A stretch of DNA of 16,777 bases, taken from positions 1 through 16,777 of the forward strand of contig JBQTGV010000220.1 in the NCBI GenBank assembly GCA_052390515.1, read 5' to 3'. Under the pieces are notes generated by a model, which saw only the letters and a program-made list of their open reading frames with translations, made no database searches and was not told the origin of the DNA. This stretch comes from Candidatus Eiseniibacteriota bacterium (GTDB lineage Bacteria; ARS69). Both the position numbers and the translations under genes were made by a program. Positions 11,143 to 16,631 of the stretch are shown in pieces. How positions within the stretch are numbered: the stretch's first letter is position 1; the number at the start of each line of letters is the position of its first letter.

Positions 11143-12828
11143 CTACGACATCGGAGAGGGCGGCGCCTTCTCCACCTGGAGCTCGTCGATGGCGCCCCAG
11201 TCCGCGCCGTTGATGTACTCGCCGCGGATGAAGATGTCGGTCACTCCGGTGAGCGCGTCGAGGATCTGGGCCTGCGTGCCCGTACCGCTGTTCACCTTGA
11301 AGTGCGCGGCGTCGATGGGGATCTCGAACTTGAAGAACCCGTTCGTCGGGATGAAGGGGCTCGGGTGGCGCGCCGCGAGCCGGGTGCCGTTCTTCCCGTA
11401 GATCACGACGTCGTCGGCCGCGAAGGACTGCCCGGCCGGGCCGACCCACAGGTAGTAGCTGATCTTCCCGCCGTAGAAGTGCGACCAGTCGCCGCCCCAC
11501 GCGAGGGGCGCACGGAAGTACCATGTGCCGCCCGTGGCCTGGTCCGCCGCGTACAGATAGTTGCCGGAGAAACCGCCCGACCGGATCTGGAGGCTCTGGA
11601 AGTCCGCGTACCCGGACCAGCCGGCCAGGCCGCCGTCGAAGTTCTCCGCGTACGTCCCCACCGACACCACGGTGCAGGTCTTCAGGTCGTAGTCCGTGGC
11701 CACCTTGATGTTGACGACGGAGTTGTCGTAGACGTTGCGGACCACGTAGGAGAGCGGCACACCGGTGGTGATGTCGCCGCCCTGGGTCAGGAACGTCGCC
11801 ACCTGATCGATGTCGCCCTGGAACGTGGCGAGCGCCTGGTTGGAGTCGCCGCCCAGCGCGAACACCTTGATGTTCACGTTCTCCAGGCTGCTCACGTACT
11901 CGCCGTCCAGGTGCGCCGAGCCGCCCGCGAGCGCCGCCTTGTACGAGGCGTCCACCGAGGCGCGCATGTCACGGACGCTGGAGGTGGACTCCACCAGCAG
12001 GTAGAAGCGGCGGCCGTAGGTCACCGACGAGATGTACGTTGCGGGGTTGCCGGGTCCGACGTACCTCGCCAGGTCCGCCGGGGTTACGACCGGCGCGAAG
12101 AGCTCGTCGGTCGACGTCGGCAGGTCGAACGCCATGGTGAAGAAGCGCTGGTTGAGCTCGACCAGCATCCGGTTGTAGGTCCGGTCCTGGCTGAAGCTGA
12201 GCCTCGTCCTCACGTTGGTGGTCAGGGAATTGACGTTGACGCCCATGCTGAGAGCCATCTGGCTCTCGGACTGGACCTCGCTGAACGAGTAGTTGAACCC
12301 GGCGGGAACGACGCCGCTGTTCTGCGCCAGGATCTCGTTCATCGCCTGGATGACGCTGCTGTATTTCACCTCGTCCACGTTCGCGAAGTTCAGGGTCGAG
12401 CCGTTCAACAGGTTGATGGAGATCGTGCCCGGTGCGCGCTTCACGACGATCGGGTCCGGCGTGGCGCCGCCCAGGGACTGTCCCTGGAGCATGTTGCCCG
12501 GGTAGACGACTTCCGCGTTCGGGTCGAACGTGGCGTAGTCGCTCGGAGCTTGGACGACGCTGCGCCGCTCCGTCGTGCAGCTGAAGACCGTGCCGTCCTG
12601 CCCCGTCTCCTGTCCGGACGCGAGGACGGAGACGTCCTCGGAAGGCTGGACCTTCTCGTAGACGCCGCCGTACGCCACCACGCCGTCGAAGGTGTTCAGG
12701 TCGGGGCCGTCCGGGCCGGCGCGGTCGTCGCCGCAGCCGGCGGCCAGCAGTCCGGCGGTCAGCAGTCCGGCGGTCAGCATCGTCGCCGCGAGGAAGCTCC
12801 CCCGGCGGCTCGTCATTCGCTTCTTCAT
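11143..12828 (-). CDS. Thiol-activated cytolysin family (CDC-like, CDCL) lipoprotein with C-terminal laminin-IV(B)-like domain
   Basis: Start re-called to ATG 12828 (SD GGAG; 561 aa). Signal MKKR..LLAAG-C lipobox. CDC core motifs VVYPGNMLQG, NQRFFT, NPATYISSVTYGRRFYL, ALGG and GVPLSYVVRNVYDNS. There is no ECTGLAWEWWR undecapeptide. The C-terminal ~165 aa contain WYFRAP..GDWS.FYGGKISY..DVVIYG..L..VT.I.IRGEY. Confidence 0.85.
   Translation of the reverse strand: MKKRMTSRRGSFLAATMLTAGLLTAGLLAAGCGDDRAGPDGPDLNTFDGVVAYGGVYEKVQPSEDVSVLASGQETGQDGTVFSCTTERRSVVQAPSDYATFDPNAEVVYPGNMLQGQSLGGATPDPIVVKRAPGTISINLLNGSTLNFANVDEVKYSSVIQAMNEILAQNSGVVPAGFNYSFSEVQSESQMALSMGVNVNSLTTNVRTRLSFSQDRTYNRMLVELNQRFFTMAFDLPTSTDELFAPVVTPADLARYVGPGNPATYISSVTYGRRFYLLVESTSSVRDMRASVDASYKAALAGGSAHLDGEYVSSLENVNIKVFALGGDSNQALATFQGDIDQVATFLTQGGDITTGVPLSYVVRNVYDNSVVNIKVATDYDLKTCTVVSVGTYAENFDGGLAGWSGYADFQSLQIRSGGFSGNYLYAADQATGGTWYFRAPLAWGGDWSHFYGGKISYYLWVGPAGQSFAADDVVIYGKNGTRLAARHPSPFIPTNGFFKFEIPIDAAHFKVNSGTGTQAQILDALTGVTDIFIRGEYINGADWGAIDELQVEKAPPSPMS
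12745..12779. repeat. 15-bp tandem duplication in the cytolysin signal peptide
   Basis: CAGCAGTCCGGCGGT twice plus a partial CAGCA. On the minus strand it encodes LTAGL-LTAGL just before LAAGC. Confidence 0.85.
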
Positions 12829-12934
12829 TTCTCCGTCTCCTGTTTCTCGGGGCCGAGCCCCTCGGGATTCTCGGGTCACCTCGGAACGCAGGAACGGCGG
12901 GCGAAAGTGCTAACGACTTTGTGGAACTTCGCCC

Positions 12935-12957
12935 AACTCGTTGACCGGCAACGTGTT
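12935..12957. promoter_or_regulatory. Imperfect palindrome in the divergent cytolysin/kinase intergenic region (candidate operator)
   Basis: AACTCGTTG-ACCGG-CAACGTGTT: 9-bp arms with one mismatch and a 5-bp spacer, in a locally less GC-rich patch. Confidence 0.4.
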
Positions 12958-15926: not shown

Positions 15927-16467
15927 GCCAGGCCCGCGCCATCCTCCAGTCCAGCCGCACGGTCTGGACGGAGACCCCCAGGACCTCGGCGATCTCCTCC
16001 TGTGTCAGCCCACCGAAGAAGCGGCATTCCACGACCCGGCTCTGCCGCTCGCTGAGCGCGCGCAGCCGCTCCAGGCACTCGTCCAGATGCAGGAGCTCGT
16101 CGGCCCGGGAGGCTCCTCCCACCAGCTCCTCCTCGAAGGTGACGAGCGCTTCGCCGCCGCCGCGCTTCTCTGCCCGGCGCTGGTTCGCGTAGTTGATCAG
16201 GATCCGGCGCATGGCCTGCGCGGCGATGGCGAGGAAGTGTGCCCGGTTCCGCCAGTCGGCCTTTCTCTGGTCGACCAGCTTGAGGTAGGCCTCGTGGACG
16301 AGCGCGGTCGCGTTGAGAGTGTGCCCCGCGCGTTCGCCGCGGAGCTGGCGGCGGGCCACTTCGTGTAGATGACCGTAGACGAGCGGCAGCAGCGCGTCGA
16401 CTACGTTCCGGTTTCCACCCTGCAGCTCTCCCAGGAGTCGCGTGACGTCGTGGGAGGGATCGGTCAT
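15901..16467 (-). CDS. ECF RNA polymerase sigma factor, kinase-associated type (TIGR02999 / ECF43, EcfK/EcfP-like)
   Basis: DVTRLL, LLPLVY..L..VARRQL..ER.GHTLNATALVHEAYLKL, W.NRAHF.AIAAQAMRRIL, KRGG, and region 4 VVECRFFGGLTQEEIAEVLGVS..TV..DW..ARAWL. Start re-called to ATG 16467 (188 aa), coupled to the upstream small ORF. Confidence 0.93.
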   Translation of the reverse strand: MTDPSHDVTRLLGELQGGNRNVVDALLPLVYGHLHEVARRQLRGERAGHTLNATALVHEAYLKLVDQRKADWRNRAHFLAIAAQAMRRILINYANQRRAEKRGGGEALVTFEEELVGGASRADELLHLDECLERLRALSERQSRVVECRFFGGLTQEEIAEVLGVSVQTVRLDWRMARAWLSREMKAE

Positions 16468-16631
16468 CGAGGCGCGCTCAACGCCGCGCCGAGGAAGTAC
16501 GGCCACAGGCACAGTCCGAGCACGGCCTTGCCGAAGCTCAGCTTCACGAATCCGATCGTGAACAGCCAGCCGATCACCCAGACGGCGCCGAACGCGGACC
16601 CGCGATCGACGATCTTGACGGTGTCGCCCAC
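16464..16631 (-). CDS. 55-aa hydrophobic membrane microprotein (not in ORF track)
   Basis: GTG 16631 with SD AAGGGGG 8 nt upstream. Translates to MGDTVKIVDRGSAFGAVWVIGWLFTIGFVKLSFGKAVLGLCLWPYFLGAALSAPR. Nearly all third positions are G/C. Its TGA overlaps the sigma ATG (ATGA). Confidence 0.8.
   Translation of the reverse strand: MGDTVKIVDRGSAFGAVWVIGWLFTIGFVKLSFGKAVLGLCLWPYFLGAALSAPR

Follow-up and report, generated by a model that had tools for sequence, protein, structure and literature searches.

In the genome analyzed here, a CDC-like (CDCL) lipoprotein gene lies beside genes for a transmembrane Hanks-type Ser/Thr kinase and an ECF sigma factor of the TIGR02999 family, and this trio recurs next to CDCL genes across phyla. 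The reading that we favor, with a probability of about 0.78, is that the kinase phosphorylates the sigma factor and that the phosphorylated sigma factor directs transcription of the CDCL gene. An earlier note had already proposed that a kinase/phospho-ECF pair controls the adjacent CDCL gene, and this proposal is supported by the recurrence of the trio across phyla, the low base rate, the co-inheritance of the linked genes with particular sigma clades and a conserved promoter motif. The recurrence of the trio with the same promoter signature suggests a pore-former that is made only on signal.

The window, meaning the whole stretch of DNA analyzed (16,777 nucleotides), is an entire 16.8-kb contig, whose end lies 310 bp before the start of the sigma gene. 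The earlier note had placed three genes in it, encoding a CDCL lipoprotein, a Hanks kinase and a TIGR02999 ECF sigma factor; their content and coordinates were borne out by open reading frames and by Pfam and TIGR profile matches, and the CDCL gene is divergent from the kinase gene, as proposed (Table 1). The kinase gene had also been described as abutting the sigma gene. Their adjacency holds, and the arrangement can now be given as convergent genes with overlapping 3′ ends, which are therefore not co-transcribed. The window's genome (4.27 Mb) has 14 TIGR02999 sigma factors, each with a kinase neighbor (14/14), and 5 of these pairs overlap in the same way by 25-26 bp. The CDCL gene is monocistronic in the window and has no further partner gene there, and no anti-sigma gene is present between the three genes. 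A search of positions 10900-16777 revealed no sigma-70-type promoters and three terminator-like sites (1.7 expected), none of them meaningfully placed.

Table 1. Coordinates of the genes and predicted features of the module in the window.
Feature	Position	Strand	Basis
CDCL (CDC-like) lipoprotein gene, 561 aa from ATG 12828	11143..12828	-	Pfam, PDB matches, AF2, Foldseek
C-terminal Laminin_B-like beta-sandwich, residues 437-558	11155..11520	-	Pfam Laminin_B, Foldseek
Putative pore-forming D1-D3 region, residues 71-380	11689..12618	-	F229-F230-X40-Y271-G272-R273 and G326-G327
Signal peptide, lipobox LAAG/C, Cys32 codon 12733-12735	12733..12828	-	lipobox after hydrophobic segment
Shine-Dalgarno GGAGA, 7 nt ahead of ATG 12828	12836..12840	-	direct sequence reading
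Predicted ECF-type promoter of the CDCL gene: -35 CACTT 12905-12909, 15-nt spacer, -10 GCGT 12886-12889	12886..12909	-	motif search and PWM
Receptor Ser/Thr kinase gene, 974 aa	13002..15926	+	Pfam; alignment of 20 CDCL-linked kinases
Conserved N-terminal domain, ~70-80 aa, no known family	13002..13241	+	conserved in 20 kinases
Hanks-type kinase domain, residues 84-374	13251..14123	+	Pkinase E 7.9e-40
Single predicted transmembrane helix, residues 410-436	14229..14309	+	sole segment with Kyte-Doolittle 19-residue mean >1.6
Juxtamembrane segment and TPR array, probably extracytoplasmic, residues ~450-974	14349..15923	+	TPR_12, TPR_10
3′-end overlap of the convergent kinase and sigma genes	15901..15926		26 bp
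ECF sigma factor gene, 188 aa, TIGR02999/PF07638	15901..16467	-	profile matches
Thr110 codon, sigma2-sigma4 linker (KRGG....VT)	16138..16140	-	candidate second phospho-site
Thr54 codon, region 2.2, NATA replacing acidic DAED	16306..16308	-	inside HTLNATALVHEAY

The longest CDCL reading frame (11143-12879, minus strand) opens at GTG 12879, but the true start is most likely ATG 12828, which is preceded by a GGAGA. The product matches the Thiol_cytolysin family (PF01289, E 3.1e-44, 151.7 bits, cut-off 25) and Laminin_B (E 2e-10). Its sequence aligned with solved structures of CDCs (E 1.8e-31) and of the E. anophelis CDCL (2.6e-10 to 4.1e-14), and its AF2 model (pLDDT 80.7) retrieved perfringolysin O (4.3e-22) and the CDCL entries 8g33/6xd4 (~1e-15) in Foldseek. 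Cys32 of the lipobox and Gly272, Arg273, Gly326 and Gly327 of the YGR motif and GG pair, which were defined for CDCLs together with the preceding F/Y-F/Y-Xn element (PMC7527733), are invariant in 26/26 aligned homologues, and the lipobox Cys is also visible in the CDCL N-termini of the linked loci. The C-terminal domain stands where CDCs have the cholesterol-binding D4 and is similar in Foldseek to laminin L4b (4yep, TMt 0.62) and CBM11 (6r3m, TMt 0.62); no undecapeptide-like string was found in the CDCL sequence. Thus, the protein combines the CDCL features of Evans et al. (2020), that is, D1-D3 homology and fold, YGR and GG motifs, a non-D4 C-terminus and a type II signal peptide such as a large share of CDCLs carry, and the lipoprotein may be surface-anchored. 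The two-component CDCLs consist of a long and a short partner (Abrahamsen et al. 2024). Only one PF01289 match, and no second Thiol_cytolysin gene, was found in the 95%-complete genome of the window, which therefore has no recognizable short partner or two-component system of this kind.

The kinase retains the catalytic Lys, the HRD Asp, the Asn, the DFG and the APE of Hanks kinases (K113, HRDLKP204, DFG224, APE258), and K113, E131, D206, N211, D224-F225-G226, T253, P259 and E260 are invariant in 20/20 CDCL-linked kinases. A hydrophobic stretch aligns at the position of the transmembrane helix in all 20 proteins. Because there is one helix and the kinase domain needs ATP, the TPR array (TPR_12 E 1e-78, TPR_10 E 6.1e-56) would be located outside the cytoplasmic membrane, where it is presumed to serve as the sensor of the kinase. 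The N-terminal domain follows the pattern RW..V..lF..A......R..fl...C..D..L..EV.SLLAAD, with L45 and L46 invariant in the 20 CDCL-linked kinases. Neither this domain nor the juxtamembrane segment gave a meaningful match in Pfam at E up to 5, and the domain retrieved unnamed clusters only from the Atlas. In Flavobacteriia and other Bacteroidota, a one-component regulator composed of TPR, a membrane helix and an HTH is found beside the CDCL gene; the TPR region of the kinase and the Flavobacteriia regulator are not detectably similar (E 0.78).

The sigma factor scored 214.2 bits against TIGR02999 (cut-off 126.15) and E 2.3e-52 against PF07638, contains sigma2 and sigma4 only, and has a start (ATG 16467) that agrees with 23 aligned orthologues. 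The NATA sequence with Thr54, pointed out in the earlier note, was confirmed at the level of both residue and codon, and Thr54 as well as the linker Thr110 are invariant in 24/24 CDCL-linked sigma factors. An ECF sigma type, an uncharged region 2.2 with a third-position Thr and an adjacent Hanks kinase are among the features of the ECF43 type and are all present here; the region-2.2 motif of that type has been reported (PMC13147305, PMC8999054). Thr54 may represent the activation switch, and Thr110, judging from position alone, may be equivalent to T106 of EcfK. In Xanthomonas citri, the EcfK T51A variant alone remains functional and the linker Thr contributes too (PMC13147305); Thr54 therefore need not be the sole switch. 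When kinase residues 1-400 were modelled together with the sigma factor, the predicted complex scored 0.52 (runs 0.52, 0.52 and 0.59; best of three controls 0.00), past a mark reached by 58/80 solved complexes and 2/110 mismatched pairs, but in a range (up to 0.60) occupied by only 7 of the 80 solved complexes and by both passing mismatches. With at least 60% of contacts agreeing between runs and a partner pLDDT of at least 67 (custom alignments), this prediction lends weak support to the partnership.

The survey of CDCL gene neighborhoods suggested in the earlier note was positive: among 80 CDCL loci taken from other genomes, 23 have a TIGR02999 sigma/kinase pair within 6 kb of the CDCL gene; the other 57 comprise 27 evaluable negatives and 30 loci with flanks too short to judge. 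The linked trio occurs in four gene orders and in at least eight named phyla (NCBI labels: Krumholzibacteriota 5, Zixiibacteriota 5, Balneolota 4, Eiseniibacteriota 2, Bacteroidota 2, Ignavibacteriota 1, Calditrichota 1, Pseudomonadota-labelled 1, unlabelled 2). Linkage is not universal, since the evaluable loci without a pair within 6 kb include six from Gemmatimonadota, and two of the searched genomes had no such sigma factor at E 1e-25. In three genomes of 3.0-3.4 Mb (G002, G004, G005), the only TIGR02999 match adjoins the CDCL gene, while 2 matches were found in G003 and 4-5 in G001. As a base rate, 80 metagenomic TIGR02999 loci chosen by sigma factor alone contained no CDCL gene (0/80) and no member of the CDCL-linked sigma clades, among the matches listed; these sigma factors are 44-57% identical, many of the contigs are short, and the 48 loci below 6 kb were left out of the sigma tree. 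With no CDCL-linked clade member recovered, the metagenomes provide no independent replicate and were therefore used as a base-rate control only.

In a tree of 41 sigma factors, the 24 linked proteins form two clades (16 rows, 87/88; 8 rows, 100/99), with 2 changes of the linkage label compared to a shuffled mean of 13.3 (0/500 shuffles as low). Clade i comprises 18 rows in a tree of 85 sigma factors (SH-aLRT 91), namely the 16 adjacent ones and the orthologues from the two closest genomes (72% identical), and the CDCL-linked clades of this tree exclude 13 own-genome paralogs and 32 metagenomic sigma factors. The window sigma factor shares 63-65% identity with the CDCL-linked sigma factors of three other loci and at most 49% with its own paralogs. 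Region 4.2 differs between the two clades, and the promoter motif CACTT-N15-GCGT is restricted to clade i. In a CDCL tree (FastTree), the linkage label is scattered (17 changes, shuffled mean 24.9), in part because 30 loci cannot be judged, and we draw no claim of a single origin of the linkage from this tree.

The exact motif CACTT-N15-GCGT is present in 6 of 24 upstream regions, whereas the best motif of shuffled sets reached 3 (18 shuffles) or 4 regions (2 shuffles, n=20). The motif precedes the CDCL gene or operon across the sigma clade of the window, was found independently in other phyla, and is positioned 128-190 nt ahead of the lipobox Cys codon in loci of 42-71% G+C. A PWM scan of 81 sequences produced 33 matches of at least 13 bits, including 23 directly upstream of a CDCL gene or operon (9 training sites and 14 new ones), 4 upstream of kinase genes in four loci, 1 ahead of another lipoprotein gene and 5 at other places. 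Four Zixiibacteriota-labelled loci lack an upstream match at this threshold, and weaker copies (7.2-13.9 bits) head their lipoprotein-CDCL operons. The two closest CDCL relatives have kept the motif and the sigma orthologue despite a 9-kb insertion between the CDCL and kinase genes. For clade ii, no motif could be defined from the upstream regions of 8 loci inspected by eye; in at least four loci of this clade the CDCL gene directly follows another gene, placing the promoter further upstream. In the window, no motif precedes the sigma and kinase genes (best 5.6 and -6.9 bits), and feedback is thus unsupported here. With the full PWM, which includes the window site, the CDCL site is the best in its genome (28.8 bits, next 17.8); when the PWM is built without the window, it ranks 5 of 8,516,500 positions, and four other genome positions outscore it (16.0-17.4 versus 15.7 bits).

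Since every one of the 14 TIGR02999 sigma factors in this 4.27-Mb genome has an adjacent kinase gene and the CDCL gene has no other partner in the window, one of these pairs might merely have come to lie beside the only CDCL gene of the genome. Such a chance neighborhood is already contradicted by the 23 linked loci, by the genomes in which the linked pair is the only one, and by the higher similarity of the window sigma factor to linked sigma factors elsewhere than to its paralogs, along with the common promoter motif, and we regard it as highly improbable. Linkage alone has no direction, and the genes may be co-inherited without the CDCL gene being a target of the sigma factor: another factor may read the motif, the sigma factor may have its targets elsewhere, and the lipoprotein may act upstream, for instance by serving the TPR domain as ligand or co-sensor or by being itself the protein that the kinase checks for damage. 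The four equally good sites in the leave-one-out scan and the lack of an autoregulatory site in the window are compatible with this alternative. However, the motif is bipartite and spaced like an ECF promoter, it keeps its distance from the lipobox codon over a wide range of G+C content, its copy at the CDCL gene tops the genome with the full PWM (window site included), and it is confined to one of two clades that differ in region 4.2, all of which makes this alternative unlikely.

It is also conceivable that the sigma factor drives the CDCL gene without phospho-control by this kinase, either constitutively, through sigma abundance, or through antisense or transcriptional interference from the overlapping kinase gene. 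The convergent 26-bp overlap, recurring in 5/14 pairs, the functional EcfK T51A variant (PMC13147305) and the weak support from the complex prediction (0.52) would agree with such a scheme. We nevertheless consider it distinctly unlikely, given the invariance of Thr54 and Thr110 (24/24) and of the kinase catalytic residues (20/20), the retention of a kinase neighbor by all 14 sigma factors of the genome, and the absence of the acidic region-2.2 patch needed by other sigma factors.

According to the favored reading, in which the kinase acts on the CDCL gene through the sigma factor, the kinase would have its N-terminal and Hanks domains in the cytoplasm and, beyond the single membrane helix, its TPR array outside, and would respond to an envelope or external cue by phosphorylating the sigma factor. 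Lacking the acidic region-2.2 patch, the latter should stay inactive until Thr54, and possibly also Thr110, is phosphorylated. It would then bind RNA polymerase and initiate at the CACTT-N15-GCGT site to give a monocistronic CDCL mRNA with a leader of ~50 nt. The CDC-like lipoprotein would be exported and lipidated at Cys32 and could form beta-barrel pores, with the laminin-IV/CBM-like C-terminal domain probably picking the target surface.

If this is true, CDCL production is gated by a receptor kinase rather than constitutive, which bears on when and against whom CDCLs serve in soils and sediments. A wider interpretation, which we offer tentatively and at slightly less than even odds, is that the CDCLs of many non-proteobacterial phyla are inducible weapons, each with a dedicated extracytoplasmic-TPR envelope sensor. 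In at least eight phyla this would be a TPR-kinase with a private, essentially single-target phospho-ECF sigma factor using a CACTT-N15-GCGT code, and in Flavobacteriia and other Bacteroidota the TPR-helix-HTH regulator in the same place. The module would then be the bacterial version of a scheme in which contact or attack is sensed first and a complement-like pore is deployed in response, and the sigma factor would dock on the N-terminal domain of the kinase. Outputs have been described for two kinase-activated ECF sigma factors, EcfK and EcfP, both from Proteobacteria. The present module provides a large multi-phylum clade of sigma/kinase pairs with a predicted target gene, a promoter motif and two candidate phospho-sites, and its signalling logic is therefore testable by a simple reporter. 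It also gives a starting point for annotating the many TPR-kinases of Gemmatimonadota, Acidobacteriota and related phyla that are still uncharacterised.

The earlier note had known of no system joining this type of signalling to a cytolysin, and our literature search likewise found no described link between kinase/ECF signalling and a CDCL, cytolysin, pore-former or MACPF; in the available part of PMC11169675, the word "kinase" has 0 occurrences and "sigma" appears only as a supplier name. Its statements on EcfK/PknS and EcfP/PknT agree with the accessible portions of PMC13147305, PMC8999054 and PMC8103513. EcfK/PknS of X. citri, an ECF43 sigma factor with a transmembrane Hanks kinase, induces an anti-amoeba T6SS (PMC13147305, PMC6653060). 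Like this pair, the window module has no acidic region-2.2 patch, a third-position Thr (T51 in QATE of EcfK, T54 in NATA), a conserved linker Thr (T106 and, inferred from position, T110), an adjacent transmembrane Hanks kinase and a predicted antagonistic weapon encoded beside its regulators. In contrast to EcfK/PknS, it has a single CDCL pore-former gene as its predicted output instead of a T6SS cluster, a kinase with an additional N-terminal domain and a large TPR ectodomain, convergent kinase and sigma genes, and a host that is not a proteobacterium. In EcfP/PknT of Vibrio parahaemolyticus, a phospho-activated ECF43 system of the polymyxin response, Thr phosphorylation restores the charge for binding of RNA polymerase beta′ (PMC8999054, PMC8103513). 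The same activation logic is predicted here (STTA in region 2.2 of EcfP, NATA in the window), but the EcfP regulon confers antibiotic resistance, whereas the predicted output of the window is a pore-former.

Among the two-component CDCLs of Bacteroidota (B. fragilis BfCDCL and E. anophelis EaCDCL), the characterized members kill bacteria by a complement-like mechanism (PMC7527733, PMC11169675). [quoted passage not shown] Unlike these proteins, it is the sole Thiol_cytolysin found in its genome, with neither a recognizable short partner nor an adjacent immunity gene, true CDCs (E 1.8e-31) are nearer to it in sequence than EaCDCL is (2.6e-10), and its C-terminus is laminin-IV/CBM-like. Compared to the CDCs perfringolysin O, intermedilysin and pneumolysin, the window CDCL lacks D4, the undecapeptide and the cholesterol-recognition region and is a lipoprotein whose environmental host appears to be of the Gram-negative type, while its D1-D3 region is homologous to theirs and has the same fold.

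The right third of the window holds three genes, coding for a cholesterol-dependent cytolysin-like (CDCL) lipoprotein, a TPR kinase and an ECF sigma factor. The account of this trio in the earlier note holds at the locus, with a detail of orientation added: the kinase and sigma genes are convergent, and their 3′ ends overlap by 26 bp. The left two thirds contain an AI-2E-family transporter gene, a copper-type P-type ATPase gene and a CusCBA-like efflux operon. In this copper/heavy-metal cluster, the P-type ATPase (YHS and HMBD domains) is followed by genes for an outer-membrane factor and for CusB-like and CusA-like proteins, with 66 bp between the end of the CusA-like gene and the stop codon of CDCL; the other CDCL loci do not share this neighbourhood. 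The draft genome comprises 4.27 Mb in 223 contigs, and the window, which is the entire contig C220 (16,777 bp), has a G+C content of about 70%.

Coordinates of features in the window, elsewhere in its genome (G000; contigs C44 and C121) and at CDCL loci of other genomes (L-numbers)
Feature	Position	Strand	Remarks
Copper/heavy-metal cluster	1827-11077
CDCL gene, longest ORF	11143-12879	minus
Repeats in predicted CDCL mRNA leader	12845-12866	minus	CCGAG-GGG-CTCGG, then second CCGAG
Motif site upstream of CDCL gene	12880-12915
Candidate promoter, -10	12886-12889	minus
Candidate promoter, -35	12905-12909	minus
Kinase gene	13002-15926	plus	974 aa
Kinase N-terminal domain	13002-13241	plus	~70-80 residues; conserved, no Pfam family
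Kinase/sigma 3′ overlap	15901-15926
Sigma gene	15901-16467	minus	TIGR02999/PF07638 ECF sigma, 214 bits vs cut-off 126
Thr54 codon of sigma gene	16306-16308
Sigma/kinase array	G000:C44:18000-50000
Insertion between CDCL and kinase genes	L022:908-9938		also in L023
Motif copies facing kinase gene	L043:9072-9107, L057:3952-3987, L061:14981-15016, L063:8979-9014	minus	Calditrichota, Balneolota
Split kinase frames	L046:5076-7633, L049:5054-7537		Zixiibacteriota
Big_5/PKD lipoprotein genes	L039:7922-9937, L040:7880-9895, L041:7934-9952, L044:7472-9433, L046:7907-9922, L074:1799-3823		directly upstream of CDCL
TPR-HTH neighbour genes	among L053-L099, e.g. L085:7801-9771

The CDCL gene is monocistronic and is the only Thiol_cytolysin gene in the whole genome. 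A GGAGA sequence 7 nt ahead of ATG 12828 favours this codon as the start, as does the agreeing position of the predicted promoter. Counted from there, the product has 561 aa, a lipoprotein signal (LAAG/C32), a Thiol_cytolysin domain (E 3.1e-44) and a C-terminal Laminin_B domain, and many of its homologues keep the same two-domain architecture. It carries the CDCL signature (F229-F230-X40-Y271-G272-R273 and the G326-G327 pair; motif as defined in passages of PMC7527733), and no undecapeptide was found in its sequence. Sequence searches matched solved CDCs (E 1.8e-31) and Elizabethkingia CDCLs (2.6e-10 to 4.1e-14). The AlphaFold2 model (pLDDT 80.7) matches perfringolysin O (4.3e-22) and CDCL structures (~1e-15), and its C-terminal domain matches the laminin L4b and CBM11 beta-sandwiches. 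Repeats in the predicted mRNA 5′ leader could possibly form two alternative short hairpins.

The genome encodes 14 TIGR02999 sigma factors, all 14 with a Hanks kinase gene beside them (6 convergent, 6 tandem and 2 divergent from the nearest kinase). With 14 such pairs and a single CDCL gene, adjacency in this genome alone could be due to chance, and a survey of other genomes was therefore run. Five of the 14 pairs (the window's, three on C44 and one on C121) are convergent with a 3′ overlap of 25-26 bp, and the sixth convergent pair has an 11-bp gap. The conserved overlap suggests that the pair was duplicated as a unit, and possibly has antisense or interference effects. On C44, five TIGR02999 sigma genes are arrayed over about 30 kb together with at least five genes for TPR kinases; these sigmas form a tight clade of recent paralogs in the sigma tree.

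Using an alignment of 26 CDCL homologues as the query, 80 CDCL loci were retrieved from species-representative genomes, each with flanks of up to 10 kb on either side. A tblastn search with the window sigma and kinase gave matches in 26 of these loci. The neighbourhood survey of Thiol_cytolysin genes proposed in the earlier note yields a recurrent TIGR02999 sigma, found within 6 kb of the CDCL gene(s) in 23 of the 80 loci at E 1e-20; at the same threshold it is missing from 27 loci whose two flanks each span 6 kb or more, and 30 loci were not assessable for sigma linkage. The carrier loci are labelled Krumholzibacteriota (5), Zixiibacteriota (5), Balneolota (4), Eiseniibacteriota (2), Bacteroidota (2), Ignavibacteriota, Calditrichota and Pseudomonadota (one each), with two unlabelled. 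By their titles, the records of all 23 are MAGs or sequences of uncultured bacteria. The 27 evaluable negatives are from Bacteroidota (18, mainly Flavobacteriia), Gemmatimonadota (6), Eiseniibacteriota (2) and Krumholzibacteriota (1). Linkage of the sigma/kinase pair with CDCL is clade-specific, not universal.

Gene order varies among the carriers. The CDCL, sigma and kinase genes may all lie on the same strand, the sigma-kinase operon may be convergent with or divergent from the CDCL gene, or a lipoprotein gene may stand between the sigma-kinase genes and CDCL. The window's own order, with the sigma gene convergent with the kinase gene and the latter divergent from CDCL, is unique among the surveyed loci. 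The preservation of linkage through such rearrangement argues for a functional tie between the sigma/kinase pair and CDCL. In two Zixiibacteriota loci the kinase frame is split into two ORFs, which could be a frameshift or an assembly error. More than one CDCL gene (two or three) is present in each of four loci (L057, L061 and L063 from Balneolota, and L042 from Bacteroidota), and among them are forms of about 820 aa that bear FG-GAP. Unlike the single gene of the window, these loci may encode multi-component pore-formers.

The base rate of the sigma family also bears on chance adjacency. Comparison of whole-genome match coordinates with the CDCL locus ranges showed that three genomes of 3.0-3.4 Mb (those of L039, L040 and L061) have no TIGR02999 match besides the one at CDCL; there are two matches in the L043 genome and four or five in that of L025. 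Metagenomic loci picked by sigma alone were used only as a control. CDCL was found in none of 80 such loci among the matches listed, many of them on short contigs. Their sigmas are, among the matches listed, 44-57% identical to that of the window, with a kinase directly downstream in most. As a control, these loci show that there is no general tie between the TIGR02999 family and CDCL genes.

A first tree was built from 41 sigmas, comprising 24 CDCL-linked sequences, 13 paralogs of the window's genome and 4 sigmas of two carrier genomes. Its linked sequences fall into two clades, one of 16 rows including the window (clade i, support 87/88) and another of 8 rows (clade ii, 100/99). Linked and other labels change twice over this tree, against a mean of 13.3 for shuffled labels, and none of 500 shuffles was as low. 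The second tree of 85 sigmas added 32 metagenomic sequences (from loci of at least 6 kb, among the matches listed) as well as the sigmas encoded in three additional genomes. In this tree clade i had 18 rows (SH-aLRT 91), consisting of 16 adjacent sigmas and 72%-identical orthologues from the two genomes with the closest CDCLs, and clade ii had 9 rows (99), eight adjacent and one whose genome has its CDCL on another contig. Neither clade contains an own-genome paralog or any of the 32 metagenomic sigmas (among the matches listed). Duplicates (L102-L106) and the fragments of a frameshifted sigma (L110 and L111) were left out, except for one fragment kept in the first tree. The window sigma shares 63-65% identity with those of L043 (Calditrichota), L039 (Ignavibacteriota) and L041 (Zixiibacteriota), and at most 49% with its own-genome paralogs.

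In the two closest genomes (L022 and L023), the CDCL gene and the orthologous kinase gene (75% identity) stand apart, with a 9-kb insertion between them; the sigma orthologue and the promoter motif are both kept. The insertion encodes two beta-helix proteins, a FlgD_ig protein and a chromate transporter, and in one of these genomes the sigma orthologue lies about 8 kb further beyond the kinase. In two Gemmatimonadota genomes, CDCL is unlinked and without the motif, and no such sigma was found at E 1e-25.

The motif was obtained by counting every possible pair of a 5-mer and a 4-mer spaced 14-20 nt apart in 24 linked loci, within the 300 nt that precede the region encoding the signal peptide of the first CDCL gene. 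The top pair, CACTT-N15-GCGT, occurs exactly in 6 of the 24 regions (the window and loci labelled Krumholzibacteriota, Bacteroidota (two), Calditrichota and Balneolota); in 20 shuffled controls the best motif was present in three loci (18 shuffles) or four (2 shuffles). A relaxed form is present in nine loci, 128-190 nt ahead of the Cys codon. A 36-nt weight matrix (PWM) built from these nine sites gave 33 matches of at least 13 bits in 81 sequences: 23 directly upstream of a CDCL gene or operon (9 training sites and 14 new), four upstream of the kinase gene in the sigma-kinase spacer, one upstream of a further lipoprotein gene, and five inside genes or unclear. The new sites include the two closest Gemmatimonadota relatives, short contigs with regulators out of view, and additional (second or third) CDCL genes of Balneolota and Bacteroidota loci. 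In loci that lack the sigma/kinase pair, the PWM found nothing except one match within a gene.

When the PWM was built without the window, the site upstream of its CDCL gene ranked fifth among 8,516,500 positions of its own genome (15.7 bits vs a maximum of 17.4), with four other sites above it. The full PWM, which includes the window site itself, gives 28.8 bits vs 17.8 for the next best. Transcription is predicted to start near 12878-12880, with a leader of about 50 nt. In the multi-CDCL loci most CDCL copies have a motif copy directly upstream. A motif ahead of the kinase gene would give positive feedback on the sensor; no such spacer-type copy was found in the window. Four Zixiibacteriota-labelled loci (L040, L044, L046 and L049) have no upstream match of at least 13 bits, and a weaker copy (7.2-13.9 bits) stands before a Big_5/PKD lipoprotein gene. 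In Zixiibacteriota and Ignavibacteriota loci the motif precedes this gene of about 670 aa (Big_5 and PKD-like domains, low-complexity tail), which is probably in one operon with CDCL. For clade ii loci no motif was defined; the sigmas of the two clades differ in region 4.2, which fits a motif belonging to clade i only.

The kinase consists of the N-terminal domain, a Hanks kinase domain with all catalytic residues, a hydrophobic helix (residues 410-436), a conserved juxtamembrane segment and a long TPR array. It is predicted to be active, and because the helix is its only one, the TPR array presumably lies outside the cytoplasm. Atlas matches for the N-terminal domain are clusters of similar short unnamed proteins, commonest in Acidobacteriota and Planctomycetota, and this domain may serve as a docking site for the sigma. 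When kinase residues 1-400 were modelled together with the sigma, the predicted complex scored 0.52 against 0.00 for the best of three controls, which lends weak support to the pairing: 58 of 80 solved complexes attained the mark, as did 2 of 110 mismatched pairs, and among those that passed, only 7 of the 80 solved complexes and both mismatches had scores of 0.60 or less. The runs agreed in at least 60% of contacts, with partner pLDDT of at least 67 (purpose-made alignments).

In 25 of the 80 loci, mostly from Flavobacteriia, the gene directly beside CDCL encodes a protein of about 625-656 aa in which a signal sequence and a TPR region are followed by one membrane helix and a putative C-terminal helix-turn-helix; the last is suggested by weak matches (Sigma70_r4_2, E 2.4e-4; GerE, 0.013). 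Cultured Flavobacteriia are among the sources of the surveyed loci. This protein could be a one-component regulator in the role of the kinase/sigma pair. Provided that the helix-turn-helix is genuine, the place beside CDCL is taken there by a second and unrelated TPR sensor.

The recurrent linkage, the sigma clades and the promoter motif support the reading of the earlier note, with an estimated probability of roughly 0.78 that the CDCL promoter is driven by this sigma under the control of the kinase. The kinase would phosphorylate the sigma, and the phosphorylated sigma would then drive the CDCL promoter, with the monocistronic CDCL gene as the predicted output. A full-text search found no publication linking CDCLs with a sigma factor and kinase, or ECF43 with cytolysin, pore-forming or MACPF proteins; the ECF-reclassification supplements and Iyer et al. 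2020 might list such neighbours. In the matched passages of the main CDCL paper (PMC11169675), "kinase" does not occur and "sigma" appears only as a supplier name. In other sigmas, an acidic patch in region 2.2 binds the RNA polymerase beta′ subunit, and ECF43 sigmas lack this patch (passages of PMC8999054, PMC8103513 and PMC13147305). The window sigma carries HTLNATALVHEAY and has no such patch, and by homology with ECF43 it should therefore be inactive until phosphorylated. Thr54 is invariant in all 24 linked sigmas, as is the linker Thr110. The latter resembles T106 of EcfK, the ECF43 sigma of Xanthomonas citri, an equivalence based on position only; T106 is described in a passage of PMC13147305 as redundant with T51. 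Both parts are of known kinds, an ECF43-like sigma/kinase pair and a CDCL, and for their link no earlier description was found.
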